A DNA stretch of 16,120 nt from a virus (lineage: Duplodnaviria > Heunggongvirae > Uroviricota > Caudoviricetes), in the IMG/VR virus record IMGVR_UViG_2778261035_000013, positions 1 through 16,120 of that record; one strand, given 5' to 3'. Below are positions 1-16,120 of this stretch, piece after piece (the stretch's first letter is position 1; every line of letters begins with the position of its first letter). The position numbers and the translations under genes are program-made. The notes beneath the pieces were generated by a model that did not search any database, had not been told where the DNA came from, and worked only from the letters and a program-made list of their open reading frames with translations.

Positions 1-1284
1 TTAATCAATCAAAAAATCCCACAAATCTCTTAAGGTATGGAAGTTTTGATTTCCACCGTTCATATATTCATCACACATTTTTTCAAGATCATCATCGTCT
101 ATTGACAGGATAAAACCTCTGCCATCATTTGCCGTGTCAAGACAACGCTGTCTGAATAATTTTTTATCCTCAATCTTCCTACAAACGAGAATACCTACAT
201 TTCCCCTATTCCTTGAGAACCTACCAGATAACTGATCTAACTCAGGATTTGCAATTTCTGACGTATAGTTTTTACACTCAACATAAATTCTAGGGCATGT
301 GTAATGTTGCGAAAGCCAATTAAAGAAACCATATTTGGCTTCATTATTATAAGTAATATCAATCCTCTTTCTACCATCATGAATTTTTTTCTGTTTCGTT
401 GGATAACATAATGAAGGATAGAATATTACAGAAAATATCTCTTCAATAAGATCTTCGTACTCCCCAGCTTGTTTTGTACCCGGCTTTAATGATTTTAATT
501 TATTGAGAATTGGATATATGTCAATTTTGTCACTGATTTCCTCTAACTCATTGAAAACTTCATGTGATAATGGTGCAGATGGATTTTTTTCTTTATGCTG
601 TTTATAATCTTCAAATACATCAGGCCGTTGTAAAGTTTGATTAATTACAGAAGGCTTATCACTTCCATATTTATTTTTTAAACTTTTTTTAGTTACTCGC
701 CTCGTGCCATTTTTTAATACCTCTACCAAGGAAGAGTTATTCCTTAAATGTTCATCTTGCATTTCTGGCAATAAATAATGATTATAAAACTCGTCATATT
801 GCAAACATAACCTATGTCTAACCAATAGCTTAGGAACTAATATTACTTTTCCATAAGTTGTCATTGGTAATGATACAAATTCACTATACCACTTTCCTCC
901 ATGTGGATCCCATATTGGCCCAGAATCAATATTGGGCGTTAATTTTACGCCATAATATTCACATATTTCTTGTGTGTATTTTATAAATGGACCTCTTAAA
1001 ATATTGCTTACTGCATCAGAAATCATGTCAGTCCCGATTCCTGGTATTAGTAGCGCTGTATCTTCAAGATCTTTTAACAATCCAGTTGTGACGGCCTTAC
1101 TTTGAGTTAGTGCATTCCAAACCGAATGAGCGGAGCCAGCGCCAAAACCATGTCCACGAGATTTTTCGGACGAATACCCTAAATGAAATTCATTCCTCTC
1201 ATTCAACGAGGCTAACAATTTTTGTGCTTCAGCATTTTTGCCAACCTTAATTAGTTTTAAAACCTTCTCAAAGAAACTTTGCAA
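1..1284 (-). CDS. hypothetical cargo protein (427 aa in ORF track) with C-terminal PD-(D/E)xK-like nuclease signature; candidate defence gene
   Basis: Long uninterrupted ORF whose stop codon is at 1..3. Motif ...HDGRKRIDITY...(26 aa)...RIYVECKNY fits the D...(D/E)xK pattern of restriction-endonuclease-fold nucleases. AT-rich (about one third GC over the first 60 nt). Only in-frame start before the first internal Met is TTG at 1284 with no obvious Shine-Dalgarno, so the 5' end is uncertain. Confidence 0.6.
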   Translation of the reverse strand: MQSFFEKVLKLIKVGKNAEAQKLLASLNERNEFHLGYSSEKSRGHGFGAGSAHSVWNALTQSKAVTTGLLKDLEDTALLIPGIGTDMISDAVSNILRGPFIKYTQEICEYYGVKLTPNIDSGPIWDPHGGKWYSEFVSLPMTTYGKVILVPKLLVRHRLCLQYDEFYNHYLLPEMQDEHLRNNSSLVEVLKNGTRRVTKKSLKNKYGSDKPSVINQTLQRPDVFEDYKQHKEKNPSAPLSHEVFNELEEISDKIDIYPILNKLKSLKPGTKQAGEYEDLIEEIFSVIFYPSLCYPTKQKKIHDGRKRIDITYNNEAKYGFFNWLSQHYTCPRIYVECKNYTSEIANPELDQLSGRFSRNRGNVGILVCRKIEDKKLFRQRCLDTANDGRGFILSIDDDDLEKMCDEYMNGGNQNFHTLRDLWDFLID

Positions 1285-2044
1285 GTGAGATGTAAGTTCT
1301 TGCCCCCAATTCGAATCTAAGGATTTAATAGCACCAGGGTCTAGAAAAACTGGTGTCAGTATCTAGTGGTATGTCAACGAAATCTAGATAAGCTTGAGAA
1401 CGATTAAGTTTGAAATATTCCGAAAAGCGCATAAAGACTCCTAAAAATCGAATGGTTTTTCAAAAAACATAACGCTATTAAAGAATCAACCAAAAATTGA
1501 TGAGATGGGGCACAGCTTAAGCAGAGAGATTCATGTTGAACGATTGAACTCATCATCTCAAGTAAAGATAAATATGGCAAGTACGTGGTTTGACGGTTGA
1601 GCAACCATTGATTGCTTCACCTATCAAAAAGTCGGATTAATATCAAGAAAGTTTAAAACACACCATCACTTAAAATCATTTAACGACGAAAATCGCACTA
1701 CACCGCACCCGCCTGCGGTTTTCATATCACTAAAATTTTTCAGTTGTGATTTTTTACAAACGATATCGCCAGCCCGCGCCCGCTCTGGGGATGCTCTGCG
1801 AGACAGGAACTGAAAAGAATGAAAAGAAATTCAGCTTTTTTCAGTTTTACTGTCCGTCATGTCTGTGGTCTGAATACGCAACACTATGATATTAAATGGA
1901 TAATTTATTTTAGGTGTGTGATTTTATGAAAATTTGTGAAACATGAAAAACATAACAACTTGAAAAATAATAATTTTATGTCCGTATAAACTGAAATCCT
2001 GTGTTCAGGTTTCGGGAACGGATCGGCCACTCCCGACGCATACT

Positions 2045-2317
2045 TTACCCATTTTTTTGCGCAGCCAGCAGCAACTTTAAAGCCTTTTCCCGCTCCTCGG
2101 GTGGAATGGCATCAATGAGCTCTTTAACCCTCCCCTGCCCGTTCAGCGCGCTTGGACTAACGGAATGGGAGAAAGCAACATTCATCACAAACGAGTGACC
2201 GCACTCCACATTAGAGCAATAGCAGTACACATCGTACAGTTGTGGGTGTTTCCTGTTTGTTTTACCTATCCGCGCTACTGCCTGACATGTGGGGCAGTAC
2301 ATTCTCATCATCTTCAT
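2045..2317 (-). CDS. ogr: Ogr/Delta-family zinc-finger late-gene transcription activator
   Basis: MYCPTCQ...(18 aa)...YCYCSNVECGHSF matches the CPxC...CxNVxCxxxF signature of P2 Ogr / P4 Delta. Several in-frame ATGs (2317, 2311, 2308, 2302), so the exact start is uncertain. Confidence 0.8.
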   Translation of the reverse strand: MKMMRMYCPTCQAVARIGKTNRKHPQLYDVYCYCSNVECGHSFVMNVAFSHSVSPSALNGQGRVKELIDAIPPEEREKALKLLLAAQKNG

Positions 2318-2385
2318 CGTTCTGTGCCCTATACTGTTGCCCGCCAGAGGAAGGGATTTGGAACCCTACCTCTTGTTCTGAACGC

Positions 2386-2574
2386 GTAACACTGGTAACA
2401 CGTGTAACATTATTGATTTAAAAGGATTTAATCTGTTACCAGTTAGCATAATCAAGAGGTAACGCGTGGTAACACACCATTTTTTGTTACCAGTGTTACC
2501 AGTCAGTATTTTTGACTGGTAACACTGAAGAACAGCATCAGTCGCGGGTGTTACCTCTGTTACCAGTGTTACCT
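2386..2574. repeat. iteron array (putative origin / cis replication region for the alpha primase-helicase)
   Basis: Eleven copies of the heptamer GGTAACA/TGTTACC in about 190 bp: forward at 2387, 2395, 2404, 2468, 2518; reverse at 2434, 2485, 2494, 2549, 2558, 2567; a near copy at 2458. Copies within clusters are spaced 8-9 bp. Lies between the alpha stop (2600) and the ogr start. Resembles the P4 type I iteron TGTTCACC. Confidence 0.65.
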
Positions 2575-2599
2575 CATAAAAATAAGACTCACGCGATAA

Positions 2600-5287
2600 T
2601 TACTCAGGTTCGGCGCTTCCCAGTACCTGTGTATTGAACTGGTACACACGTTTAAGCCCTATTTCTGGCAGGCGAATGCTGTTTTGCGTCCGGCCATCTT
2701 CACCGGGTTTCAGCCAGCCCGCGTCCACACACAACCTGGCCACCTTACGCGAGTCAAATCCCTTACAGATCTCCTTCCAGCCTGACGGGAGAACGTAGAA
2801 CGTCACAACCGGCTCCGTTACGTTGTCTCCTTTATCGACTTTTCTGAATCCCATCATTGAAACAGGCCGGTTCCTGTCGTCATTCCAGTCAGCAAACCGA
2901 CTGAACTGATTACGCGTCATGAAGTCCCGTACCTGTTCAAGTGCCGCTTTATCTTCCTGATTAGCTGTATGGCCACGGTCAGCCATCCATGCAGCCAGAC
3001 AACGTTGAGCGGCACGAAAGGCCTCTCCCTCCGGCCATCCTGTGATGCCCGCTTTTGTGGCCAGTTCCCCGGCCATCGCAACCAGAGCAAAACGGGTAAC
3101 AGCCCGGCCAACCTGATTCCCGGCATTTTCCGGCGTCAGCCTTCGGGTGTACTCTTTCAATAAGGCTTTCGCCTGGCTGGTCAGTTCCGGCAGTTCAGCG
3201 GTCAGGCAATGCAGCCAGTCGCGGAATGGTGCGCCATGATAATGCGCTACGTGCTGCTCAAGATGCTCAGCCAGGGTTTTCCCGCTACTGAAGCCATGAA
3301 GTTCTTCAAACACGCCATATTTGCCCGAATCGCTTGGGATCTGGATCATTCTGACCTCAACCCCGGCATACGTACGTTCCCCGGCGCTTGCGGCATGCTC
3401 TACCAGTGACAGTTCCCCGGTGGACAGAAACAACAGATTCCAGCGGTTGGTTTCCCTTACCGAACCATCTGTTCTTGCTCTGGCTTTGCCCTGCCCGTTA
3501 GCCAGCATATAAGCGATATTCCCCGCCTCCCTGCCGTCAACCTCCCGGATTTCATCGAGCATCAGCGTGGCATCATTGCGGCGGCTCGCCGTTCCTTCTA
3601 ATGCATTCCCCGTCGCCCGCCACGTATGCCAGAAATCTGTTCCACCACATACTGATGCAGCCACTTTCATCGTCGTGGTTTTACCGTCTGTTGATTCCCC
3701 TTTGAGGTGATAACCTCCACCGCCGATACCAACCAGTTTCAGAAGGGGGGCAGCAAATGCCAGACTCACCGCAAAGGCAAGACGGGCATTCTTTATGCAG
3801 TAACGGCCTATATTTTCACGCCAGTCCTCTGATGTGCCGCTGACACGAAAATCACGCCCCTGCACACTCGATGTTTGTAAGATGACTGACTGGGCTTCGC
3901 GCCCTATCACTTCATCCTGGAGAACGTAAACCCCGCCGTGCCAACCCGTTTTATTCACACAGGTTACTTTTCTGTCCGGTTTACACAGCGAGATATATTC
4001 CATCAGGAATGCTCTGGCCATACCGTTAATGTTGATGTAAGAAAGCCCGTTAACCAGCAGAACGCGGCGCAGTTCTTCCCCGCTGCCACCCAGCATCTCC
4101 ATCGGCATTGCCCATTTACGGCTGTTTCCGTTGGTATCTTCCCATTCCAGCAAACGCCCGTAATTACTTCCATCAGCATCACTGGTGATTGCCGTCACCC
4201 GCAACGGACTGCAAATTTTGATATTACGTATCTCTGTATCACCATCAGACTTATTAACCAGCTTGTCGTACCACAAATATTCTTTTGTCAGCCGGAACCC
4301 TTCTGGTAAACGGGTCTGCCCTTTGCCATGCAACGTCATTTCTTCACGAAAGGCATCTCTCGCCCGTTCTTTCCCCACTTCCTGCCGATAATCATCCCAG
4401 TCAGCCTTATGGCGTACCGGAGGGAGCGTTACCCAGCCATCCACCGCTTTGGCGGCTTTCTCTGCCTGAATACGCCCGGTGTTTTCTTTGCCGTCAGCCA
4501 GATCATTATCTCCTGCCACAATGATCCGGGTTTCCGGCCAGCGTTTTCGGATCTGCTCCGTCACCTTCAGTAAATTGGTGGCAGCGACAGCCGCCACGAT
4601 CCATCCTTCAGTCAGCAGACTGACGGTAAGCGCCGTGGCAAAACCCTCAGTGATAATCACCTGTTCAGGTGTTTCAGCGGGTATATCTGTCAGGGCAATG
4701 AATGCGCCAGACAGCTGGCTACCGGGCAGCAGACTTTTATCCCCGTCAGGATTGATAAGCTGGCCACCGGTAATATTCCCGGAAATATCCGTCAACGGCA
4801 GCAGTAATGAACCGGAGGAAAATGTTATTCCGGCCAGATTCAAAGGCTGTGACAGCAAGGGAAGTGAATACCCGTGTAAGCCCTTGTTTGTCAGATAGAC
4901 CGGCTCACCATTGCAGGACTGCTGTCTGAGTCGGGTATATCCCTCCGCGCCCGCTTCTTTTCCTGCTGCCTTTTTCCTGGCTGGCAAAGCGGGCTTCTCC
5001 TGTATTTCTGGTAATGCAAGCGCCTCAGATACCATCCCGGCGACTTCTTTTATCTTTCTCCCTGTCACCAGACGAACCAGGTCAAGACCATCGCCATGAC
5101 CGCACTGATTACAAAACCACGTCCCACGCCCCGCTTTATCGTCCAGCCGAAAGCGATCTTTTCCACCACAGGCAGGGCAAGCCCCATGATGTCCTGCGGA
5201 CGGTACTTTAATACCTAATGCTGACAGGATATAAGGCCAACGGCCAATTGCAGCCCCTGAAATTGTGGATACAGACGGTGTTTTCAC
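2600..5287 (-). CDS. P4 alpha-like bifunctional DNA primase-helicase (895 aa)
   Basis: N-terminal zinc ribbon CPACGGKDRFRLDDKAGRGTWFCNQCGHGDG, Toprim-like acidic motif IIVAGDNDLADG, Walker A P-loop GESTDGKTT in the C-terminal half. GTG start at 5287 overlaps the stop of the upstream ORF (GTGA). Confidence 0.9.
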   Translation of the reverse strand: MKTPSVSTISGAAIGRWPYILSALGIKVPSAGHHGACPACGGKDRFRLDDKAGRGTWFCNQCGHGDGLDLVRLVTGRKIKEVAGMVSEALALPEIQEKPALPARKKAAGKEAGAEGYTRLRQQSCNGEPVYLTNKGLHGYSLPLLSQPLNLAGITFSSGSLLLPLTDISGNITGGQLINPDGDKSLLPGSQLSGAFIALTDIPAETPEQVIITEGFATALTVSLLTEGWIVAAVAATNLLKVTEQIRKRWPETRIIVAGDNDLADGKENTGRIQAEKAAKAVDGWVTLPPVRHKADWDDYRQEVGKERARDAFREEMTLHGKGQTRLPEGFRLTKEYLWYDKLVNKSDGDTEIRNIKICSPLRVTAITSDADGSNYGRLLEWEDTNGNSRKWAMPMEMLGGSGEELRRVLLVNGLSYININGMARAFLMEYISLCKPDRKVTCVNKTGWHGGVYVLQDEVIGREAQSVILQTSSVQGRDFRVSGTSEDWRENIGRYCIKNARLAFAVSLAFAAPLLKLVGIGGGGYHLKGESTDGKTTTMKVAASVCGGTDFWHTWRATGNALEGTASRRNDATLMLDEIREVDGREAGNIAYMLANGQGKARARTDGSVRETNRWNLLFLSTGELSLVEHAASAGERTYAGVEVRMIQIPSDSGKYGVFEELHGFSSGKTLAEHLEQHVAHYHGAPFRDWLHCLTAELPELTSQAKALLKEYTRRLTPENAGNQVGRAVTRFALVAMAGELATKAGITGWPEGEAFRAAQRCLAAWMADRGHTANQEDKAALEQVRDFMTRNQFSRFADWNDDRNRPVSMMGFRKVDKGDNVTEPVVTFYVLPSGWKEICKGFDSRKVARLCVDAGWLKPGEDGRTQNSIRLPEIGLKRVYQFNTQVLGSAEPE

Positions 5288-5694
5288 AGCAGCACCTCCT
5301 GACCTTCCGGCTTCACAAATTCAAAACCTTCGGGTAGTTCGCCATCAGGTGCACCGAAAATAATATCCCGGTAAACCTCACGCATCTCTGTGACACCAAA
5401 AACTGACAGGCGAATATTTTCTGACATAAAGCCCGGTTTAAGCATCTTTTCCAGTTTCTCTGCGGCCAGTATGCAACCTGCATCAGCCCCAAATTCATTC
5501 ACCCACGGCATTTCAATATGGTAAATAATATTACTCACCACTTTTTCGTGGGTGAGTTCTATTCGTTCGCCATCTTCAATATAAACAGGTTCATTATGAA
5601 CACGCGCCATTAAGGAAATGAATGCATCAGCAATGTAATACCGTAAGACTGCTGTTCGTAAAGCATGCACCTTTAAATTTTGATTATTATTCAT
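5284..5694 (-). CDS. hypothetical protein (136 aa), alpha-operon member
   Basis: ORF with ATG start; start overlaps the stop of the upstream ORF by 8 nt and its stop overlaps the alpha start; backbone-like GC. Confidence 0.6.
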   Translation of the reverse strand: MNNNQNLKVHALRTAVLRYYIADAFISLMARVHNEPVYIEDGERIELTHEKVVSNIIYHIEMPWVNEFGADAGCILAAEKLEKMLKPGFMSENIRLSVFGVTEMREVYRDIIFGAPDGELPEGFEFVKPEGQEVLL

Positions 5695-5923
5695 CGCGCA
5701 TCACTCCCTTAATTGTGCTGGTTTCCTTAACAACGCCATCCAGTTGTTCGGCAATACAGGCCACTAAAGCCGCAGCGCCTTCCGCTGAAACAGTTCTCGC
5801 TCCATTCACTGTGGGAACGGACAGAACCTCTGCAAGAAATTCACTGGCCAGTGCCGCCCGTAACAGACGACTCTCACCCAGTTCACTCAATATGCAGCCT
5901 TGCTTAAAATTCATGGATTTCAT
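5687..5923 (-). CDS. hypothetical protein (78 aa), alpha-operon member
   Basis: ATG at 5923 overlaps the stop of the upstream ORF (ATGA); GGAGGTG Shine-Dalgarno 5 nt upstream. Confidence 0.5.
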   Translation of the reverse strand: MKSMNFKQGCILSELGESRLLRAALASEFLAEVLSVPTVNGARTVSAEGAAALVACIAEQLDGVVKETSTIKGVMRDE

Positions 5924-6123
5924 GCAACCACCTCCCCGGAGCTTTTCACAGGGATACGGGCAGCAAAGCTCAGGATAAATTCAGTGGCAAGTTTAAGGCG
6001 TGCAGCATGCTCGCAGTCTGCGATTACACGCACAGGACGTGGACGGGCATCACGGTCTGTACGGCGGACAGCCAGAAAGACAAAGGTAAATTCAGGGTGA
6101 GATAAAGCAGGGACTGTAGCCAT
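5920..6123 (-). CDS. hypothetical protein (67 aa), first gene of the alpha operon
   Basis: ATG at 6123 preceded by GAAGGAGG Shine-Dalgarno. The ORF-track ORF (5920..6609, 229 aa) extends upstream over the regulatory leader and terminator and is probably not translated there. Confidence 0.45.
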   Translation of the reverse strand: MATVPALSHPEFTFVFLAVRRTDRDARPRPVRVIADCEHAARLKLATEFILSFAARIPVKSSGEVVA

Positions 6124-6175
6124 AATGGCAACCTCCTTCAGATAGCGGGTAACGCTACCACCGGAGTTCCTACGC

Positions 6176-6342
6176 TCATGGGTGGTAGCCCAGACGGGGG
6201 TAGGAATACCGGCTCTGAAGGATACCGGCCAGCCCGAAAGCTGCCCCGCCTGGACTACCATAATACTGATGATGTGGCGTAAAAAATAAAAAAATACAAT
6301 CAGCCACCACACCATAAATTTTAGGTGAGTCAAAGCTGCGAC
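6176..6342 (-). ncRNA. candidate CI/C4-like immunity antisense RNA (boundaries approximate)
   Basis: Region between the intrinsic terminator and the operon RBS that contains the inverted (seqB-like) motif copy at 6199..6224; no coding potential with RBS seen. By analogy with P4 CI RNA and P1/P7 C4 RNA. Ends not determinable from sequence. Confidence 0.3.
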
Positions 6343-6367
6343 ACAAAAAAACACGCCTGGCGCGTGT
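6343..6367 (-). terminator. rho-independent terminator
   Basis: On the minus strand: ACACGC / GCCAG loop / GCGTGT followed by TTTTTTT (plus-strand A-run at 6345..6351). Confidence 0.6.
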
Positions 6368-6563
6368 AGTATCGCCTTCAGATAACACGGGTTCCTACGC
6401 CCGGCTGCCGATTTTGCGGCAACCTTTAAACTATATCCCGTGCATTCCTGGTGAGGCAAGAAATTTATAACCGAAAACTGATCATTGCCTGGATTAATTA
6501 ACGCTGGCATGCTTAAGCCTCTGCTTAAAAATAGTTCTTCATTTTTTCCTGATGCTGTAAACG

Positions 6564-6585
6564 AGACCCGCCTCTGAGCGGGTCT
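6564..6585 (-). terminator. hairpin immediately 3' of the capsid gene (putative terminator)
   Basis: Perfect 8-bp stem AGACCCGC/GCGGGTCT with 6-nt loop, 13 nt after the capsid stop; the T-rich tract is on the plus-strand side only, so function as a minus-strand terminator is uncertain. Confidence 0.35.
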
Positions 6586-6598
6586 TTCTGTCGCTAAG

Positions 6599-7603
6599 TC
6601 AATCCGCAAACGTCAGAGCGCTCTCATCGACAGCCGCGTACAGTTCTGGTTCACCGAGTGCATAGCCTTCATTGCGCAGGTAGGAATGTACGTATTCACT
6701 GTTTTCATCATCAAACTCAGCACGAAACCAGCGTGTTATCGCCTGGGTGTATATATGCAGATTATCCAGCGTCGTTACTGCCAGACGCTTACCCGGCATA
6801 AACGGGGGAATAAACGCAAAGCGGCCAGCAACAGAACTTGTAGCCATCTGTGCAGCATTCACATCAGCCGGGCGGTCTGCGGCATTAAATAACTTCAGGC
6901 GTTGATGTGCTGCCAGCTCTGCCCCAACTAGTACAACCAGACGGGGATCTTCACGAAACTGCTCAGCAATAAGCTCAGTAATCAGATGGTTGGCCAGAGA
7001 ATCAATATTTTTCCAGGTGCCAGTCTCTCCCAGAGTGACAGGCTCAGAGATGATTTGCTTCCCGTTTCCGTAGGCTTTCGCCAGTGCATGCCAGCCAATA
7101 TTGACATCCTCGCCTTTTTTATTGATTTCCGGGTTTGTAGTATTTGCAATCGACACACCATTGAAACCGATCCGCAGCATATCCAGCGCATATGCCTGAG
7201 CAAAAAAGCTCTCAACCGTTTTCTCAAACTCATCCGGCACGCCGGTATGGTAAATATGAGACATATCGGAATAGCTGATCCGGGCGCAGGTATCCGTCTC
7301 TGTCAGAAAGAACTCCGTACCATTGATTGCTATTTTTTTGTGGAAACGGCCACCATCCGCACGTCCGGTATGCAGTTCACTGGCACCAATATTGACGGCA
7401 TTACCTGACACGGCGTTAACATCACGTAGCGTGATATTTTTAATAAGCCAACCGGATTCCAGAATTGAGGTACGCAGTATATTTTCAGTGGGTTCGCTTA
7501 ATGCAAAGCGTCTGTTTGATTCCTCCTGATAGTTAGTGCCAGTAACGAATTTATTATGATAACGACGTGCTGCGTCCGGCCTTTCAGTTTTGAAGGCATA
7601 CAT
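6599..7603 (-). CDS. P2 gpN-like major capsid protein (334 aa; HK97 fold inferred)
   Basis: Recognisable similarity to P2 gpN as recalled from memory: N-terminal RFALSEPTENILRTSILESGWLIKNITLRDV vs KFTVEPSVTQTLMNTMQESSDFLTRINIVPV; GFNGV; NIGW vs AVGW; EDPRLVVLVGAELAA vs EDPDLVVIVGRQLLA; LDNLHIY vs LENLSIY. ATG start with GGTGA RBS. Confidence 0.75.
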   Translation of the reverse strand: MYAFKTERPDAARRYHNKFVTGTNYQEESNRRFALSEPTENILRTSILESGWLIKNITLRDVNAVSGNAVNIGASELHTGRADGGRFHKKIAINGTEFFLTETDTCARISYSDMSHIYHTGVPDEFEKTVESFFAQAYALDMLRIGFNGVSIANTTNPEINKKGEDVNIGWHALAKAYGNGKQIISEPVTLGETGTWKNIDSLANHLITELIAEQFREDPRLVVLVGAELAAHQRLKLFNAADRPADVNAAQMATSSVAGRFAFIPPFMPGKRLAVTTLDNLHIYTQAITRWFRAEFDDENSEYVHSYLRNEGYALGEPELYAAVDESALTFAD

Positions 7604-7625
7604 AGTTTTTCACCTTTTTTAGTAT

Positions 7626-8498
7626 TTAAGAAAAGATTTTATTTTTGTACTCAGTAACCCGATTGTATTTCATTACATGCTCAACATAATCCCGGTCACT
7701 TACGACTGAACGTAATACATAATTATCTGCTCGATAGTACTCCCTGTAAGCCATGACTCTTGCCATTCCACCGTTATTTAATACATAACGATCAGTTGGA
7801 ACGCTACAACGGCTAATAATTTCATTCACAGAATCAGACAAAGATTTGAGTGCATCTGTAATAAATTTAATATCACGAACAACGTCACCGTCATTAAACA
7901 CAGAAATAAAATCAGCAGGGATCTGGCCGGATTGAGGAAATATGCTCAGTAAACGCTTCTCAACTCCCTTACCAATGTAGTTAACTTCATCGGCCAGTAC
8001 GCCCGGTAAAAGCTTGATTGTGCTCAGTCGGTTATGTTGCTCATTCAGCCGGGAAACAGCCAGATGGTAACACCGTTCAGCATCCGCTCGTTCAGCATGC
8101 CCCGTTTTATTCGTTTTGGCTTCAGCAATGCTACTGACGCCGTTTTTTGAGAATGTGCTTTTCCATGCAACTTCCGCATTTGTCACTTCACGCTGCCGGA
8201 AAGATAACTCTTCCTCTTCCTGACGACACAACTGGGCATACCGGCTTAGGAGTAGGTTGATCTCATTCGCCACAGCTTCCGTATCAGGTACTGTTAATCC
8301 CGTAAGTGAATACAGCTTTTCACCTTTAGCGCGCAGCTTATTTAATGAAAATATTTCAATAATTCGCACAATACATGCAGTGTCGCTATGAGTTTCTTTA
8401 AACGGACTTACTTTATAGTTTCCTAACACGGAAACATATTCATTCTTAATTGGAAGGGATATGTATTGACTCCCCGCCGGTTGTAGACGGTAATTCAT
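7626..8498 (-). CDS. hypothetical AT-rich protein (290 aa) immediately upstream of the capsid gene
   Basis: ATG with GAGGAG Shine-Dalgarno; 22-bp gap to the capsid gene; central region rich in charged/helical sequence (LLLSRYAQLCRQEEEELSFRQREV...); lower GC than flanking backbone. Confidence 0.6.
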   Translation of the reverse strand: MNYRLQPAGSQYISLPIKNEYVSVLGNYKVSPFKETHSDTACIVRIIEIFSLNKLRAKGEKLYSLTGLTVPDTEAVANEINLLLSRYAQLCRQEEEELSFRQREVTNAEVAWKSTFSKNGVSSIAEAKTNKTGHAERADAERCYHLAVSRLNEQHNRLSTIKLLPGVLADEVNYIGKGVEKRLLSIFPQSGQIPADFISVFNDGDVVRDIKFITDALKSLSDSVNEIISRCSVPTDRYVLNNGGMARVMAYREYYRADNYVLRSVVSDRDYVEHVMKYNRVTEYKNKIFS

Positions 8499-8534
8499 AT
8501 AAACTCCTCATAAATTCTTCTAATACTAATGTTT

Positions 8535-8735
8535 TTACTCTGAAGAATGACTATCACGCCAAGCATAGTAGTCACCAGCACGCCATCGGGACATACGACC
8601 TAACTTGATTGGTTTAGGAAAACGTCCCAGAGAAATCAGTTTATAAATCCATTTATCAGTAAACAGACAATCAGATGTAATGAATTTCATATCAATGAGC
8701 GAGTCAGCAGAAGGACGATTATCAGTAAACCCCAT
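8535..8735 (-). CDS. alpA: AlpA-family phage transcriptional regulator / excisionase-like (66 aa)
   Basis: Motif LGRFPKPIKLGRMSRWRAGDYYAW matches the AlpA FPKPxKLG...W signature. ATG at 8735 preceded by AGAGAGGAA; the ORF-track start at 8759 is a TTG extension. Confidence 0.75.
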   Translation of the reverse strand: MGFTDNRPSADSLIDMKFITSDCLFTDKWIYKLISLGRFPKPIKLGRMSRWRAGDYYAWRDSHSSE

Positions 8736-8800
8736 AATGAGTTCCTCTCTATGTATCAATCTATATCAACGAAGAGGATTAAAACATCGTTCAAAAACAT

Positions 8801-8835
8801 AAAAAAGGCGAGTAAGAAAAATTTCCTTACTCACC
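8801..8835 (-). terminator. rho-independent terminator after the int-proximal cargo gene
   Basis: Stem 8807..8816 / 8826..8835 (GGCGAGTAAG vs GGTGAGTAAG, one mismatch) with 9-nt loop, followed on the minus strand by TTTTTT (plus A-run 8801..8806). Confidence 0.5.
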
Positions 8836-8842
8836 AAAATTG

Positions 8843-9631
8843 TTAATTTTTTGTAAATGATGGTTTCTTGAATATAGATGATATTAGTTTGCTAATAATT
8901 GGGTGTGATAGCGGAGGCTCTTTTTTATCAGGCCAAAATTCCTCAGCCCGACTAAAGATAAGGTCAGCAAGGGCTGCTGCATTTTCCTTTCGGTATGCCA
9001 TGTCCTCTTTATAAAGATATAATGCTACACTTAGAATCTCATTTCTCTTGGTAGCATGTCTTTCTTGCTGTGCAATTGATAACGATTTATATTTATCATT
9101 AGAAACATCACCATTTAATATCAGATGCAATTTCTTTACATCTTCCCGCTCCAGGTACGCATCTCCCTCATATCCAAACCCATCATCATTTTTCCAGTCA
9201 ATTTGAATATATTTGACCATTTCAGAATAGGTGGTACCAGTAGGAGACAACAATGATGGGTACTCCGGGAACTGCCCCTCATAAAAAACGAAATCACTTT
9301 TAACTTTTGGTGGCATTTGGAAATAGCCTTTTGTACTCGCCAGCACTAGTTTTTTATCTTTTTTAACTTCATTAATCTTAATCAAACTAAACTCAGATAT
9401 ATAACTAAAACCATCTTTATCTTTTTTCAAAGAGTTTATATTCTGAATAAAAGAGTCCACATCTCTTACTTTATGCTTTGAAAAAGACCATCGCCCACAC
9501 ATTCTTAGCGACAATTGAATGTCTTTTTCATCCGCAATATAAATAACATCTTGCTCATCGCAGCCCAATATTTTAGCGGCCTCACTAATACTATAATGAG
9601 TTCTATGAAGCTTGAGAGTATTATTTACCAT
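8843..9631 (-). CDS. hypothetical AT-rich cargo protein (262 aa) between int and alpA
   Basis: ATG start 3 bp after the integrase stop; N-terminal helix-turn-helix-like stretch YSISEAAKILGCDEQDVIY; followed by a terminator; AT-rich. Confidence 0.6.
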   Translation of the reverse strand: MVNNTLKLHRTHYSISEAAKILGCDEQDVIYIADEKDIQLSLRMCGRWSFSKHKVRDVDSFIQNINSLKKDKDGFSYISEFSLIKINEVKKDKKLVLASTKGYFQMPPKVKSDFVFYEGQFPEYPSLLSPTGTTYSEMVKYIQIDWKNDDGFGYEGDAYLEREDVKKLHLILNGDVSNDKYKSLSIAQQERHATKRNEILSVALYLYKEDMAYRKENAAALADLIFSRAEEFWPDKKEPPLSHPIISKLISSIFKKPSFTKN

Positions 9632-9634
9632 TAC

Positions 9635-10816
9635 TCAAGACTCCGTTCCACCAATAAAATCACTGTACCATTGCATCATTTCCCGACGCCCATCAAGATA
9701 CTGAGCATGATTATATATCCCCCGAATAGCATTTTTATCCAAATGTGCAAGCTGGGTTTCAATCCATGCACTATTGAAGCCTTTTTCATGCAAAATAGTG
9801 CTCATTGTGTGTCTGAAACCATGGCCAGTAACTCGGCCAGCATATCCAATACGCTTAAAGACCTGATTAATACTGGCCTCACTCATGCACTTACTTGGAT
9901 CGTTGCGCCCTGGAAACATCAAAGGATAGTTTCCAGTCAGTTCTTTTAATGTTTCAAGATGGGCTAATGCTTGATTTGAAAGCGGCACAATATGAGCACG
10001 TCGCATTTTCATACGTTCTTTAGGAATCTCCCACACCGCATTATCAAAATCCACCTCACGCCACTCACCTGCTCTTAGTTCTCCTGTTCTTAGACCCGTC
10101 AGGATAAGTAAATGTGCCCCCAGCAATACAATTGGGCTTCCTGAATAAGCGTTAAGGGCAGTAAAGAACTCCGGCAGCTCGTTGGCTTTGAGGAATGGAT
10201 AGTGGACTGCTTCATGTCCTTGCATCGCACTGGCAAGATCCGGTGCAGGATTGTAGATTGCTCTACCCGTTACGATGGCATAGCGGAAAACTTCACCGCA
10301 TCGCTGACGGACTTTCTTCGCTTTCTCCATAGCGCCTCGTGCTTCTATCAACCTCAGTACTTCAAGAAGTTCTAGGGGCTGAATATCGGCTATAGGTTTG
10401 TGTCCAATATGCGGGAAAATGTCTTTCTCAAACGCCTCAATGATGTCTGAAGCATAGCCCTCAGACCATTTGGGAGATTTCATTTTGTGCCACTCTAACG
10501 CCACTTCTCTGAATGGGTTAAGTGTCTCGATCGCTGCGTTTAAAGCATGCTTCTTTGCTTTTTTCACTTCGCCAGGATCTTCACCTGCTGCGAGTAGTTT
10601 CTTTGCGTCTTCGCGTTTTTGTCTGGCATCTGCGAGGGTGACTGTTGGATAGACACCAAAGGACAAGCGCTTCTCTTTACCAGCAAAACGGTACTTCATA
10701 CGCCAGTAACGCGAGCCATTAGGTTCAACCTGAAGGTACAGGCCACCTCCATCAGATAGCTTATAGCTCTTCTCTTTTCCTTTAGCGGCTTCAACCTTGC
10801 GAGCATTCAGCATCAT
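9635..10816 (-). CDS. int: P4-family tyrosine integrase
   Basis: N-terminus KSYKLSDGGGLYLQVEPNGSRYWRMKYRFAGKEK typical of P4-type integrases; C-terminal catalytic region with ...HGFRHT... and ...LAHLD...YNHAQY... consistent with the R/H/R/Y tyrosine-recombinase motifs; adjacent to the tRNA fragment. Start placed at the ATG at 10816; the ORF-track start at 10885 is TTG. Confidence 0.9.
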   Translation of the reverse strand: MMLNARKVEAAKGKEKSYKLSDGGGLYLQVEPNGSRYWRMKYRFAGKEKRLSFGVYPTVTLADARQKREDAKKLLAAGEDPGEVKKAKKHALNAAIETLNPFREVALEWHKMKSPKWSEGYASDIIEAFEKDIFPHIGHKPIADIQPLELLEVLRLIEARGAMEKAKKVRQRCGEVFRYAIVTGRAIYNPAPDLASAMQGHEAVHYPFLKANELPEFFTALNAYSGSPIVLLGAHLLILTGLRTGELRAGEWREVDFDNAVWEIPKERMKMRRAHIVPLSNQALAHLETLKELTGNYPLMFPGRNDPSKCMSEASINQVFKRIGYAGRVTGHGFRHTMSTILHEKGFNSAWIETQLAHLDKNAIRGIYNHAQYLDGRREMMQWYSDFIGGTES

Positions 10817-10980
10817 TGGGGGCACATTTCCTAGACCGAACAGAACATGCCCCCGATTGTGCCCCCAATTGTATGTTGATTTCAAGAGATAGGGGTTGAC
10901 GTCAAATGACGAAGAATCGCGTAATATCTATGTTTTTAAAGGGCTTTGTTGATTTGAGATGACTTGGAAATACTAAGGGA

Positions 10981-11026
10981 TGGTGCCGATAATAGGAGTC
11001 GAACCTACGACCTTCGCATTACGAAT
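10981..11026 (-). other. 46-nt 3' fragment of tRNA-Thr(CGU) (thrW-like): att core / displaced tRNA 3' end, not an intact tRNA
   Basis: Minus strand reads ATTCGTAATGCGAAGGTCGTAGGTTCGACTCCTATTATCGGCACCA, matching a thrW-type tRNA from the anticodon loop to the CCA end; the match breaks at 11027, so the 5' half of the tRNA is absent. Confidence 0.7.
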
Positions 11027-11356
11027 TATAAGAATCCGATTCTAATTCAAAGCATTACCCCATCAACACTGCGCTCACACGTCCCACCACATCAAAACAT
11101 GTAAAGCCTTGCAAGCCATTGTGAGGCCTTATGTGTCTCAGTTTTGTCCCATCTTGTATTACGACTCGCATAGCTAATGAAGATAAACGTGACGACAAAC
11201 GGCGAAGCAGTCTTCTTTTCTTTCGCTGCTTCCCCACACCCAGCATGCATACCTTTCCGTCATAACTGAAGTGAATGTCTGTTATGAGCGAGGAGCGGAC
11301 CTTGAATGAAGCACAAACATCCTATAGCTCCTATTATCAAAATGCGTGAGCAAAAA

Positions 11357-12172
11357 TTAATTGATATTTTGGGATATTTCTCTCAAGTATGGTTCAACCT
11401 CTGGGCGTTGCATATGATGCTTCATTGAGTCAAGAAAGGTTATGGGGGTTTGCATTACATCTACTTTAGATTTATTTTTCCTAATGAGAGTCATTCCTTT
11501 GCAAGTTTCTAAATATTCCTTAACTAAAGCTTTCTTTCGATTTCTATGCAAATCGCCTTTAAAAGCTAGAATATGAAAAATTGCGGCACCAATTACAATC
11601 TGTTTCACCGCGCATTCGGATGATTCGAATTCGCCCCATGAAATTCGACCAAAGAAAGGATTCGCATATCCAGAAGGATGCGCTTTGAGGTTATGGCCAT
11701 ATTTTAGCATTTCCGATGGTGTCAATTTTAATGGTTTAAACAACCCAGCCGAAATTGCAAAGTCTGAAAAGTCAGAACTCAACCCCAAAATAACATCTTT
11801 GTATTTATCAAAAAAAGACAATTTCTTCTCACTAGCCCTAGATGAATTAAATGCAACTTTAAGTAGCCAGCGAGAAAGCAAGCTATAATTATAATCGATA
11901 TTAACTTTTTCTTTTAAAAAACACTCTGTAAAGAAACCAGAGCGCTCTAGCATATTTTTGACATAACCATCTAAATTACATAGAACTACGTTATTACAAT
12001 GAAAACAAACATCTTTTATTTTAGCCTCACCACTTATCATTTTTTTTGATTTTTCTTGCCATCCTATAGTTTTCCCAGATGCTGTACTATATTGATATTC
12101 ATAGATGAAAGACGGGAGTATATGTTCTCTAGTCATTTTCCCTTCCTGACCACAATATATGCAAGTGCTCAT
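11357..12172 (-). CDS. hypothetical AT-rich protein (271 aa) with N-terminal HNH-like nuclease motif
   Basis: CIYCGQEGKMTREHILPSF...VCFHCNNVVLC gives a CxxC...EH...CxxC-N HNH-like arrangement in the first ~65 aa; ATG with AAGGA RBS; AT-rich. Confidence 0.6.
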   Translation of the reverse strand: MSTCIYCGQEGKMTREHILPSFIYEYQYSTASGKTIGWQEKSKKMISGEAKIKDVCFHCNNVVLCNLDGYVKNMLERSGFFTECFLKEKVNIDYNYSLLSRWLLKVAFNSSRASEKKLSFFDKYKDVILGLSSDFSDFAISAGLFKPLKLTPSEMLKYGHNLKAHPSGYANPFFGRISWGEFESSECAVKQIVIGAAIFHILAFKGDLHRNRKKALVKEYLETCKGMTLIRKNKSKVDVMQTPITFLDSMKHHMQRPEVEPYLREISQNIN

Positions 12173-12497
12173 CTTATTCCTTTATCAAAGATATAATAAC
12201 TAAAATTCGATTATAACAATTAAAAACTCGCGTTAGTAGTTGTTAACTTATCAATAAACAGTTTCTCAATTATTAGTCAGCATCATCAGAAGAAACCCCT
12301 CTCCAAAGATAATTTTATAAAATAATATAAATGTCCACGCCTGGCACGGAGTAGACTGGCTATCTAAGCTAAAGGTCTGCTGTGAGCGAAAAGCTGACAG
12401 GACGTAGTTTCTTGTTTAAAGAATCAGTTAAGGCATTAAAAATAGATGTAACCAGAGCCAAGGTATAATATCCTGGCTCTATTTACACTTGCGTACA

Positions 12498-13202
12498 TTA
12501 TTCTTGCTTTTTGGGAGGTTTTGGGTGTTTCTCAGGTAATTTTTCTGCAATCTTAAATACCCCCTCATCTTTTAGTATTGTTCGCATTACAAAATTTTCT
12601 ATAATTACCAAAAGTGATTTAAATTCAGCTTCGTTCGGTGACCATGCCCTGTGTGCTGCTGAGTTGCCAGCTTCGGTTACAATTTTAAGTTGGCTCCTTT
12701 CTGTTTCCCCAATAAAACCTTCCTCTTTAAGAATGTCAACCTTCTGGCCTAATGTATGTCCTGGGTGAATATTTAAAACTTCGACTGTTCTGTCAAAAAT
12801 AGTTCTGAGCCCAATTGCCGCTAAAATGAGTGATTTATTTTGAAATGCAATATACATTTCGTTCATTATCACATAAAGCTGATAATCTTTGCTTAATATC
12901 TCGCCAAACCAAGTGGGTCTAATCTCTTCTTGCTCTTGCGTAGGATATGTTGATATATGATAGTTATATACTATACAATCATAGCCTGACTCATCTCTTT
13001 CATAGTCGTAATCTTCACTATGACGGGATTTAATATATGTAAATATTCCGTCGCATCCCATGCACTCTAATAATTTGTATTCACTTTCAGCCCAAAAATA
13101 GTTGTCCCCATCCCCCTCGCTCCATTCTCTTTTTTTATAACCTATTGTGTGACAATTTTTTTCACCTTTACAGTATGGACAAGGCGCTTTGATTTTTTCC
13201 AT
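12498..13202 (-). CDS. hypothetical AT-rich protein (234 aa) with N-terminal zinc ribbon
   Basis: CPYCKGEKNCH...CMGCDG Cys cluster; C-terminal region with a GNSAAH motif loosely reminiscent of DUF4145/HEPN-like domains (unverified); ATG start without a clear Shine-Dalgarno. Confidence 0.5.
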   Translation of the reverse strand: MEKIKAPCPYCKGEKNCHTIGYKKREWSEGDGDNYFWAESEYKLLECMGCDGIFTYIKSRHSEDYDYERDESGYDCIVYNYHISTYPTQEQEEIRPTWFGEILSKDYQLYVIMNEMYIAFQNKSLILAAIGLRTIFDRTVEVLNIHPGHTLGQKVDILKEEGFIGETERSQLKIVTEAGNSAAHRAWSPNEAEFKSLLVIIENFVMRTILKDEGVFKIAEKLPEKHPKPPKKQE

Positions 13203-13572
13203 AATAATTATTCTGCCAATTAAATTAATATTGATATGACATATATGCCAATGATTTATAAACGATAAATTGACTATTCACTTTACTACAATAATTTTCA
13301 TATGAGTAGTGATAAGCCTCTCATTTTCTTTGTCGTAGATTGATCTGCTCTGTATCGATTAACACCGAATGGGGGAGTAGCTTCCGCTTTTGGCACATAG
13401 TAGTCCTAGAGACAGTGACGTAAAGTCATGGAGGATCGGTGGGAGGAGGTGCTAATCCTTTCATACAAAAAATATGTAAAATCAATAACGGCTGTAAATC
13501 ATTCAATACTCGCACTATCGGAAGTTCACCAGCCAGCCGCAGCACGTTCTTGCATACGACGAGCCTGCGGTT

Positions 13573-14127
13573 TCATTTATCTCCGACCGGAAACATCTTA
13601 TACAGTGTCGATACACCAACATCATAGATGATCGCCACCTTTTGGCGAGGAACGCCTGATGCAATTAATCGCCCGGCCTGCGCCCATTGTTCTGGTGTAA
13701 GTTTGGGACGACGTCCACCAATTCGTCCCTGCGCGCGAGCAGCTTCCAGTCCAGCTTTTGTTCGTTCAACAATCAGTTCTCGTTCCATTTCAGCCAAGGC
13801 ACCCATCACATGAAAGAAAAAACGCCCCATCGGTGTGCTGGTATCAATAGCATCCGTCAGGCTGCGAAAATTAACGCCACGTTCGCGCAACTCCTCAACT
13901 AGAATGACCAAATGCCGCATACTACGCCCCAGCCGATCCAGCTTCCAGACAACCAGTGTGTCACCTGCCGATAATGTCCTGAGCAGTTTTTTCAGTCCGG
14001 GCCTTTCGGACTTCGTACCGCTTATCTTGTCTTCAAAAATCAGCTCGCATCCTGCACAGTTCAGCGCATTACGTTGTAGATCTGTGTTCTGGTCATTTGT
14101 TGACACACGTACATAGCCAATAAGCAT
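13573..14127 (-). CDS. pin: Pin/Gin/Hin-family serine DNA invertase
   Basis: MLIGYVRVSTNDQNTDLQ...LVVWKLDRLGRSM...FRSLTD...MGRFFFHVMGALAEMERELI matches e14 Pin / Mu Gin (catalytic Ser in VRVST). Start placed at the ATG at 14127; the ORF-track start at 14163 is an upstream extension. Confidence 0.9.
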   Translation of the reverse strand: MLIGYVRVSTNDQNTDLQRNALNCAGCELIFEDKISGTKSERPGLKKLLRTLSAGDTLVVWKLDRLGRSMRHLVILVEELRERGVNFRSLTDAIDTSTPMGRFFFHVMGALAEMERELIVERTKAGLEAARAQGRIGGRRPKLTPEQWAQAGRLIASGVPRQKVAIIYDVGVSTLYKMFPVGDK

Positions 14128-14181
14128 GGTAGATCTCCCTGACAAAAGCAGGAATGATGCCATTTGCTCGTTATTTCTGCA

Positions 14182-14207
14182 TTTTCATAAACGTTGGTTT
14201 GAGAGAA
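14182..14207. other. left crossover site (pix/gix/hix-like) of the invertible segment
   Basis: TTTTCATAAACG TT GGTTTGAGAGAA has the 12+2+12 quasi-palindromic layout of Hin-family sites (compare hix TTATCAAAAACC AA GGTTTTTGATAA). Its inner half is an inverted repeat of the window end: the first 13 nt, GGTTTGAGAGAAG, match the reverse complement of 16108..16120 at 12 of 13. Confidence 0.55.
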
Positions 14208-14648
14208 GCGGCAAAACGAAATGTGGGCAACGGGGAAAACCAAATCCCTGATATGTCTTTCTGGACGGTTACTGGTGGCAATGGAAATTTTGTGATTCGT
14301 CAACCTGACGGGCTAATCATTCAGATGGTTACTGTAAGTATAAGCGGTCCAGTGGCGATGAATGGAATGACTGATAATGCTTATGCCATTACAGGTTCTA
14401 ATAAGTCTTATATTGCCACAGCCACATTGCCCTTTGTATTTCCTAATAAGGTGCTGGGCGTTATCCCTCTGGTATCAACAACAGCTTATGGTGGTGTATC
14501 CAGTAATATTACAGGTTCATACGCGACGGCGGTTTGTTCTTTTGCCGCTGTCAGGGGGAATAATACGATTGTGTTCAAAGTCGACAAACCACTGAATGCA
14601 GCCTTTCCTTCAGATACCAGCGTCTCAGCGTTAATCATTGGACGGTAA
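14196..14648 (+). CDS. tail fibre variable C-terminal cassette (currently promoterless/silent orientation)
   Basis: Reading frame begins inside the left crossover site (GLREAAKRNVGNGEN...); the upstream in-frame codons of the ORF-track ORF (from 14154) lie in the pin promoter region; followed directly by a tail-fibre assembly gene. Confidence 0.6.
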   Translation, partial: GLREAAKRNVGNGENQIPDMSFWTVTGGNGNFVIRQPDGLIIQMVTVSISGPVAMNGMTDNAYAITGSNKSYIATATLPFVFPNKVLGVIPLVSTTAYGGVSSNITGSYATAVCSFAAVRGNNTIVFKVDKPLNAAFPSDTSVSALIIGR

Positions 14649-14650
14649 TA

Positions 14651-15094
14651 ATGAACTCAGTATTCTTTTCACCCGGAAGTAAAAGTTTTTATCTGCAAGA
14701 ATTGTTTCCAGAATATGAGGATGCGGGAACGCTTCCTGATGATGTTATTGAAATTACCAGAGAAACATATGAGCAATTTCTTGGTCTGCATCCAGAAGGG
14801 AAAGAAATTGGCGCTGACAGTTCAGGACGGCCAATATGGATTAATTCCCCACCCCCTTCAAAAGAGGATGAGGTGTTGACGGCTGAAATGAAAAAAATAT
14901 CTTTGGTTTCAGAAGTCAATACCTACATCAATACCCATCAGTGGCCTGGCAAAGCTGCTATTGGTCGTCTGAAAGGCGAGGAACTGGCGCAATATAATTC
15001 GTGGCTGGATTATCTGGACGCACTGGAACTGGTCGATACTTCCTGTGCGCCAGATATTGAATGGCCTACGCCTCCGGCAGTTCAGGCCAGATGA
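14651..15094 (+). CDS. tail fibre assembly protein (147 aa) of the silent cassette
   Basis: ATG 2 nt after the upstream stop; C-terminal half AAIGRLKGEELAQYNSWLDYLDALELVDTSCAPDIEWPTPP parallels the C-terminus of the opposite assembly protein (TRLNAVLDYIDAVTATNTSTAPDVIWPELP). Confidence 0.7.
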   Translation: MNSVFFSPGSKSFYLQELFPEYEDAGTLPDDVIEITRETYEQFLGLHPEGKEIGADSSGRPIWINSPPPSKEDEVLTAEMKKISLVSEVNTYINTHQWPGKAAIGRLKGEELAQYNSWLDYLDALELVDTSCAPDIEWPTPPAVQAR

Positions 15095-15668
15095 CATCCG
15101 GCGCTGTGCTGGTATTTGTTGCCGTCACCGCGTCAATGTAATCCAGCACAGCGTTAAGCCGGGTTGTTTCTGCCTGCATCAGCTTCCGTCCGGCCTGTAA
15201 TTTCAGCTGAATCAGACCGATGGAAGCCATTGCAGCATCAATCAGTGACTGACGCTGTGCTTCTGCCGCGTCTACTGCGGCGCTATGCTGTGCCTCAGTA
15301 TCGGTCACCCATTTCTCACCATCCCATTTATCGTATGGCGTTAATGGGGCAATAGTGGTTGTATTTTCGGGGTAATCACCCGGTGCTGTGATCTGTTTTG
15401 ATTCTCCCGTTTCGGTGTTATAGACGATTTCACCGCGATGGTCTGGCACATATTCCCATGAATTTAAATTCACAGAACGACAGATAGCATAACCTGCCTT
15501 ATGTATACCTGGTGCATCCAGACAGGAATATGCCGGGATACCAACACCAACGGCAAGATATTCACTTGAAGTGGAAATATATTCCCGAGTTTCACCATCA
15601 TAGTTATAAACGGTAATATCCCCTGCCTTTGTAGCAACAAGTCCACTATTTAATATTGCTTTATCCAT
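15066..15668 (-). CDS. tail fibre assembly protein (200 aa) of the expressed cassette
   Basis: ATG overlaps the stop of the upstream fibre ORF (TAATG); Tfa/U-like size and C-terminal motif; convergent 29-bp overlap with the other assembly gene. Confidence 0.75.
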   Translation of the reverse strand: MDKAILNSGLVATKAGDITVYNYDGETREYISTSSEYLAVGVGIPAYSCLDAPGIHKAGYAICRSVNLNSWEYVPDHRGEIVYNTETGESKQITAPGDYPENTTTIAPLTPYDKWDGEKWVTDTEAQHSAAVDAAEAQRQSLIDAAMASIGLIQLKLQAGRKLMQAETTRLNAVLDYIDAVTATNTSTAPDVIWPELPEA

Positions 15669-16120
15669 TATGCTGCTCTCACGATATAGTTAAATGCAAT
15701 GTTGCGTGGACGGGTATCGACGGGGTTAACGGCCACTGTACCCGACACGGACTGGTCATTACCGTTGCTAACGGTAATGTTACTACTGGTTGATCCAATC
15801 CCTACTGAATCGGTAAATTTAGCACCTGAGCCGCTCAAAGTTCCCGAGATGATAGCTAGCCCCACATAAAAAGTACCTACAGTTGGCTCTTGTGTTGACA
15901 GCACCGCACGCCTTGAATCAACGCCGCGCCCATCATCCCAGCCACGAATAAACTCACCACGTAAATCAGGCAATTTATTTGTCGGATAAGCCTTTGCCAG
16001 TTCCGGGTATTCTTCAGCAGAAAAAGCCGCACCGTTGCATTTCAGCCAGCCTGTTGGCGGTGTGGCTGAAGGCCATGGAACAGGCACACCAACAGGTAAT
16101 GCAGAGCCTTCTCCCAAACC
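15668..16120 (-). CDS. tail fibre protein, variable C-terminal part; 5' partial (constant part lies beyond the window)
   Basis: Frame is open to the window edge (the track's M at 16117 is TTG). Contains PVGVPVPWP...GWLKCNGAAFSAEEYPELAKAY, which looks like the collar motif of Mu/P1/e14-type fibre tips. Reading frame passes through the right half-site. Confidence 0.75.
   Translation of the reverse strand, partial: GLGEGSALPVGVPVPWPSATPPTGWLKCNGAAFSAEEYPELAKAYPTNKLPDLRGEFIRGWDDGRGVDSRRAVLSTQEPTVGTFYVGLAIISGTLSGSGAKFTDSVGIGSTSSNITVSNGNDQSVSGTVAVNPVDTRPRNIAFNYIVRAA

Follow-up and report, generated by a model that had tools for sequence, protein, structure and literature searches.

A P4-type RNA immunity leader, most likely controlling the primase-helicase operon, in a satellite prophage of Escherichia coli

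Immunity of retronphage phiR73 is reportedly a heteroimmune variant of the P4 type, as Sabbattini et al. are said to have described in 1996. Details of the P4 terminators t1, t4, and timm reportedly go back to Briani et al. in 2000. In the P4 genome, the immunity region carries three Rfam matches (C4, isrK, and c4-a1b1), and the P4 record labels this region "cI gene product / transcriptional repressor". The termination mechanism of P4 has been summarized previously (PMC4825925; PMC3632133). For P4-like prophages, IsrK has been equated with seqA and C4 with the CI RNA (PMC3632133), and the core gene set of P4-like satellites comprises int, alpA, alpha, delta, sid, psu, and epsilon (PMC8628076).

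Herein, we analyzed a stretch of 16,120 nucleotides, called the window (positions 1 to 16,120 of the IMG/VR virus record IMGVR_UViG_2778261035_000013, Caudoviricetes), which has the same three Rfam matches as P4. Our analysis indicates that a leader in this window is very probably a P4-type RNA immunity switch, most likely working as in P4. Direct support comes from sequence and structure homology, from complementarity among three sites with family-wide co-variation, and from a conserved overlapping frame. By analogy with the work on P4, the RNA would be expected to be processed, to bring about termination, and to confer immunity, and eta to act as it does there.

A first-pass annotation of the window had described a bipartite motif occurring twice in direct and once in inverted orientation. 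All three copies were present within 265 bases, and their coordinates had been given correctly to within a few bases. One half of the motif, CCTTCAGA, has two plus-strand copies (6135-6142, 6375-6382), one minus-strand copy (6214-6221), and an unrelated copy at 14607. These 4 matches in the window compare with 0.36 expected, and 0 of 200 shuffles contained at least 4. The other half, TTCCTAC, likewise has two plus-strand copies (6167-6173, 6392-6398) and one minus-strand copy (6200-6206). The intrinsic terminator described between the distal direct copy and the inverted copy was recovered on the minus strand (6367..6341), where the terminator scan found a stem at 6367..6351 (6 pairs, 4 of them G-C) followed by TTTTTTTGTGT to 6341. 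Overlap of the proximal copy with a Shine-Dalgarno sequence was also borne out, as UCUGAAGGA (6142..6134) shares bases with AAGGAGG (6138..6132) in the minus-strand RNA. The functional (RNA) strand is the minus strand. Therefore, the "direct" copies are the targets (RNA GUAGGAA...UCUGAAGG), and it is the "inverted" copy that supplies the antisense element of the small RNA.

This small RNA had been proposed as an unannotated member of the CI/C4 family marked by the inverted copy. An Infernal search with the Rfam C4 model gave a match centered there, scoring 81.1 bits (gathering score 45, E 6e-15), and the RNA is absent from the RefSeq annotation. Folding of the CI RNA gave an MFE of -47.8 kcal/mol (z -5.1) and the same structure as that in Rfam, in which a closing stem (6260..6183) encloses two hairpins. 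By analogy with P4, the mature CI RNA is predicted to be about 79 nt long. Across 29 distinct relatives, the CI stem positions were paired in 783 of 783 cells (100%), with double changes at 8 pairs, and 0 of 500 shuffles matched this result. Exact complements of the two seqB determinants, 8-9 nt and 7 nt, respectively, are found at both 6398..6375 and 6173..6134. The closing stem is followed by CCA (ACCACCCAU), likewise in P4 (CGCCAUC); judged from the sequence, this CCA may fit RNase P recognition. On the plus strand, Rfam matches to SNORD37 and Trp_leader at 6499..6591 were weak and at chance level (E 0.15-0.27), and these were rejected.

The P4 immunity promoter region has the two hexamers of the PLE-like promoter unchanged and in the same place in the alignment. 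Of the 33 related loci in which a promoter pattern was found, 23 have the pair TTGCCT/TATAGT, more than have any other. The promoter-like site ends 6 nt before the start of the isrK model, and the transcription start is a putative one. The leader that follows matched the Rfam isrK model (RF01394) with 69.5 bits at 6423..6346 on the minus strand, against a gathering score of 50, with the intrinsic terminator at its end. The model c4-a1b1 (RF03163, "a1, b1 targets of C4") scored 43.8 bits at 6436..6384 on the minus strand, just under its threshold of 46.7. Hairpin 2 of the leader presents GUAGGAA in its loop, and the linker carries UCUGAAGG; the predicted duplex between seqA and seqB reaches -37.1 kcal/mol. 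The leader terminator (stem 6367..6351, U-run to 6341) is the equivalent of P4 t1. Two points go beyond the first-pass annotation: IsrK, to which the terminated leader belongs, is a curated RNA family, and a conserved eta-like frame spans the leader.

At the downstream target, AAGGAGG ends 8 nt before the AUG (6123..6121) of the kil/icd-like gene; the codon at 6126 is AUU. The predicted seqC-seqB duplex reaches -35.4 kcal/mol. The Kil/Icd-like protein matched NCBIfam phage_ICD_like (E 1.6e-19); P4 has a 65-aa ORF in this place, and the two share 52.5% identity. Further downstream, the ORFs of the operon (2600..5923) overlap by 4-8 bases, stop over start codons. The description of the leader as lying upstream of the alpha operon is fair, since the last gene of this operon encodes a primase-helicase, the N-terminal 320 aa of which are 38% identical to P4 alpha. 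The features are collected in Table 1.

Table 1. Features of the candidate immunity leader and the operon downstream of it (coordinates within the window)
Feature	Coordinates	Strand	Basis
PLE-like sigma-70 promoter, TTGCCT-18 nt-TATAGT	6459..6430	-	Promoter scan; alignment with P4
IsrK-type leader (hairpin 1, hairpin 2, linker, intrinsic terminator)	6423..6341	-	Rfam, terminator scan, fold
seqA-equivalent upstream target: GUAGGAA (6398..6392) and UCUGAAGG (6382..6375)	6398..6375	-	Motif matches
C4/CI-family antisense RNA	6265..6178	-	Rfam C4 RF01695, 81.1 bits, full-length model match 1-87
seqB determinants: UCCUUCAGA in hairpin 2 loop; UUCCUAC in single-stranded 3' junction	6222..6214; 6206..6200	-	
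seqC-equivalent downstream target: GUAGGAA (6173..6167), spacer hairpin, UCUGAAGGA (6142..6134)	6173..6132	-	Motif matches
Kil/Icd-like protein, 67 aa, first translated gene after promoter	6123..5920	-	Translation
78-aa ORF	5687..5923	-	Matches only PHROGs of unknown function
136-aa ORF	5284..5694	-	Matches only PHROGs of unknown function
Primase-helicase, 895 aa	2600..5287	-	Pfam Zn_Ribbon_Prim, Toprim_3, DUF927
Eta-like 196-aa frame (the PGAP "Icd-like protein" CDS)	AUG 6510 to stop 5920	-	P4 comparison

Comparison with P4 by blastn aligned P4 8285..8707 with window 6043..6438 at 70.9% identity. The order and spacing of all parts are common to both, as is the position of seqC over the kil Shine-Dalgarno, and the promoter hexamers and hairpin 1 (GCCGCAAAAUCGGC) are identical. 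The alignment also shows the terminator, the CI backbone, and the SD-AUG context. In contrast, the pairing sequences differ. The targets read GUGAGAA/UUCACAGG in P4 and GUAGGAA/UCUGAAGG in the window, and the CI determinants read CCUGUGAA/UUCUCAC and CCUUCAGA/UUCCUAC, respectively, which amounts to a compensating switch at all three sites. Expressed as alleles, the CI loop is UUCAGA in the window and UGUGAA in P4, and the CI junction is CCUA and CUCA, respectively. Cognate duplexes were predicted at -35 to -38 kcal/mol and window-by-P4 cross duplexes at -20 to -26 kcal/mol, the cross duplexes being 11-17 kcal/mol weaker. This weaker predicted cross-pairing suggests heteroimmunity, and on these duplex energies the window allele is probably heteroimmune to P4. 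Other differences concern the surroundings. The window is without 29 nt of the variable spacer of P4 between t1 and CI, its leader is preceded by a capsid gene where P4 has orf88/PLL, and its downstream genes are unrelated to those of P4 except at the alpha N-terminus. Equivalents of the P4 terminators t4 and timm were not located by sequence in the element.

If the leader works as in P4, the promoter would constitutively give rise to the leader transcript, from which the CI RNA of about 79 nt would be cut out, presumably by RNase P and PNPase. Its determinants would then pair with two bipartite targets on transcripts of the same promoter. Pairing with seqA would increase termination at 6367..6341 and limit CI synthesis, an autoregulation. 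Pairing with seqC would cover the ribosome-binding site of the kil/icd-like gene, and the untranslated transcript would stop before the replication genes. Expression of the primase-helicase operon would thus be shut off in the lysogen, and likewise in any superinfecting element that shares its type.

The leader could instead act in the manner of Gifsy-1 IsrK, where a stable short leader RNA (6423..6341) would activate the long transcript in trans or titrate the C4-like RNA and serve chiefly as an inducer. In favor of this, the leader scores above the isrK threshold (69.5 bits) and contains a CI target in full. The short IsrK of Gifsy-1 activates translation of the long isrK-orf45-anrP transcript, and STnc1160, a C4-like RNA that undergoes processing, lies downstream (PMC4825925); TraDIS in S. 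Typhi found IsrK-like elements of P4-like prophages to be required (PMC3632133). However, the same isrK match is present in P4, the leader of which is about 71% identical to that of the window, and the gene downstream is kil/eta, not orf45/anrP. In the Gifsy-1 study itself, co-expression of STnc1160 departed from a simple titration model (PMC4825925). We consider a chiefly inducing leader unlikely. The Gifsy-1-style and P4-style roles are not mutually exclusive, and they may coexist.

The leader is carried by an E. coli satellite prophage that is related to P4 and has a tRNA-Thr gene as its integration site. Positions 1..11026 of the window are 99.96% identical to the chromosome of E. coli TK3887 (NZ_AP044767.1), in which the matching stretch is an island between a tyrosine integrase and the tRNA-Thr gene adjoining proA, with its genes on the minus strand throughout. 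The identity to the TK3887 chromosome ends at 11026, within the tRNA-Thr gene adjoining the integrase. Therefore, the flank of the island differs on that side in the window's own genome (11027..16120). The P4-like core genes present are int (43% identity), an alpA-like gene, the alpha N-terminal domain (38%), and an Ogr/Delta zinc finger; blastp gave no match in the element to P4 sid, psu, epsilon, or orf151. The element is a P4 relative carrying another morphogenetic module. Because it is not P4 beyond the leader, int, alpA, part of alpha, and the delta-like gene, the role of the operon after derepression and the helper may both differ.

Several other features of the island were observed. A capsid gene and a 290-aa ORF occupy 6599..8498 (minus strand), between the alpA-like gene and the immunity leader. 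The P2-family major capsid protein has 334 aa (Pfam PF05125, E 7.6e-67), and its best phage matches are only about 49-51% identical; the 290-aa ORF precedes the capsid gene and has no Pfam match. The satellite may build, or modify, a capsid using its own coat protein. A TGT-N12-ACA dyad of the P2/P4 late-promoter type lies at 2374..2391, with the start of the Ogr/Delta-like zinc-finger gene (2317, minus strand) some 60 nt downstream, in a window where the count of such dyads is at chance level. At the far end of the island, past the Ogr/Delta-like gene, 1..1284 (minus strand) holds part of the ORF for a large hypothetical protein (477 aa in the RefSeq annotation), with PHROG 27295 (function unknown) as its sole match. 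This ORF may be satellite cargo.

The leader was found at an identity of at least 95% in 448 of 5,426 complete E. coli genomes (about 8%). Matching places in complete E. coli genomes numbered 1,865, and 892 of these are plasmid-borne. The majority of all 1,865 matches fall in the 80-90% identity band, a distribution that pools all replicons. The plasmid matches may stem from phage-plasmids, as modules of the C4/icd type.

Cryptic P4-like islands are common in E. coli, and this element is without sid, psu, and epsilon, so that the module might be an intact-looking but silent relic in a defective island, regulating nothing. Against this, the promoter hexamers, terminator, CI fold, and both targets are intact and perfectly complementary; int, alpA, a full-length primase-helicase, and the capsid gene are retained; and the leader recurs at high identity in the 448 genomes. 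We regard a silent relic as very unlikely.

The RefSeq record that is 100% identical at the leader locus has no RNA gene annotated there. Its sole annotation at this place, made by PGAP, is a 196-aa "host cell division inhibitor Icd-like protein" CDS, corresponding to window 5920..6510. This eta-like frame begins upstream of the promoter, crosses seqA, t1, CI, and seqC, and ends as kil. Compared with a 197-aa P4 frame, it is 49% identical over 180 aa, and both start with MPAL. The P4 frame is eta, nested with kil, as reportedly described by Forti et al. in 1999. Forti et al. are also said to have reported in 1999 that P4 eta is translated solely from transcripts of the upstream late promoter PLL and that eta translation prevents termination.

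Read in the frame of the kil AUG, 59 of 65 distinct leaders lack any stop codon over the 354 nt upstream; for the other two frames, the corresponding numbers are 1 and 4, with averages of 5.9 and 4.2 stops, respectively. Therefore, the leader is also coding. Among the six exceptions, four loci (L014, L079, L089, and L102) have another frame open and a CI-to-AUG distance one base shorter, which suggests that they carry a frame-shifted version of the overlapping gene. We rejected the idea that the 196-aa PGAP CDS is an over-extended mis-annotation, given that most distinct relatives (59 of 65) keep the frame open and that its identity to P4 eta is 49%. The CDS is an eta homologue and not simply an error, yet it hides two RNA genes. 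By analogy with P4, transcripts from further upstream would allow the eta-like frame to be translated from the AUG at 6510 through the leader, overriding immunity. Between alpA and the eta-like frame lie the capsid gene and another ORF. As for a PLL-like late promoter, no TGT-N12-ACA dyad was found near 6510..6700, with the window count at chance level.

Co-variation was examined in 106 loci with a P4-type CI core, collected from IMG/VR and GTDB genomes. These represent 73 distinct leaders and 41 distinct CI sequences, and the set contains redundancy. The collecting pattern fixes hairpin 2 and its flanks, and it samples close CI relatives only. The 106 loci fall into 16 determinant types, drawn from ten loop alleles and three junction alleles. 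The 8-mer complement of a locus's own loop allele was present upstream in 92 of 106 and downstream in 103 of 106, against 3 of 954 and 0 of 954, respectively, for foreign alleles. The 7-mer for the own junction allele was present upstream in 103 of 106 and downstream in 106 of 106; with foreign junction alleles, the numbers were 6 of 212 and 0 of 212, respectively. Most of the imperfect seqA sites have a single A-to-G change that preserves a G-U pair. Across these loci, each allele switch is copied into all three sites.

One CI backbone can carry up to six types, and the determinant columns are the most variable, with the collecting pattern lowering the values they are compared with. The window type, UUCAGA/CCUA, is common (17 of 106 loci), and a sibling type (GUUAGA) is two substitutions away from the window allele with a backbone otherwise identical. 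Two IMG/VR loci (L034 and L047) have the CI loop allele UAUGAC with no downstream half-site match (3 mismatches) and imperfect upstream sites. These loci may be immunity-defective or between types.

That the repeats are a by-product of the 196-aa coding frame, or operators of a protein repressor, with no regulatory RNA involved is hardly credible: a conserved open frame does span the whole region, PGAP annotates the CDS alone, and the P4 record speaks of a "transcriptional repressor", but neither the co-variation, over 16 types, of an inverted copy with two direct copies nor the compensatory CI stem pairs can be accounted for by coding, no repressor-like protein is encoded beside the leader (the only HTH is that of the AlpA-like gene 2.4 kb upstream), and P4 immunity is attributed to RNA (PMC4825925; PMC3632133).

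A broader proposal can be put forward tentatively. The CI system of P4-type satellites could be a combinatorial address code with two modules, shaped by diversifying selection. In addition, the terminated IsrK-like leader, with its full CI target, might act as a trans decoy that sets the immunity threshold between co-resident elements. We hold this proposal to be possible, with the balance of probability against it. Swapping of specificity is said to be an old principle, known from phiR73 through Sabbattini et al. in 1996. Neither an address-code survey nor a decoy test was found in the searchable literature.

The RNA immunity switch was recognized from raw sequence, though it is missing from the RefSeq annotation of the identical E. 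coli locus. What is added to a classic system is an intact, probably heteroimmune CI/seqA/seqC allele that is present in about 8% of complete E. coli genomes. The system, its Rfam families, and the equivalence of IsrK with seqA and of C4 with CI were already known, and knowledge of the mechanism is unchanged. The comparative set provides a clean natural demonstration of three-site co-variation, and the family as a whole conserves the eta-like frame that overlaps the RNA genes.

Among the other known systems, phiR73 reportedly resembles the window in having a P4-type CI RNA, the specificity of which comes from a few bases changing together in seqA, seqB, and seqC. Gifsy-1 IsrK/STnc1160 shares with the window an isrK-family leader followed by a C4-like RNA, which is processed in Gifsy-1 (PMC4825925). 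In Gifsy-1, the short RNA activates orf45-anrP translation and leads to growth arrest, and the downstream genes differ from those of the window. In phiKO2 and related Klebsiella phages, CI and leader segments about 81-82% identical to the window lie beside an Icd-like gene, but just two short pieces match. The context of N15/phiKO2-type modules is the antirepressor operon of a linear plasmid-prophage. The C4 RNA-icd-ant system (immI) of P1/P7 also belongs to the Rfam C4 family, its antisense RNA and targets share a transcript, and, as in the window, a target covers the ribosome-binding site of the icd-like gene. The P1 operon encodes an antirepressor, whereas that of the window encodes replication genes. 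The P1 type also departs from the window in its determinants and in the sequence of hairpin 2, and nucleotide sequence groups the window with P4, not with P1.
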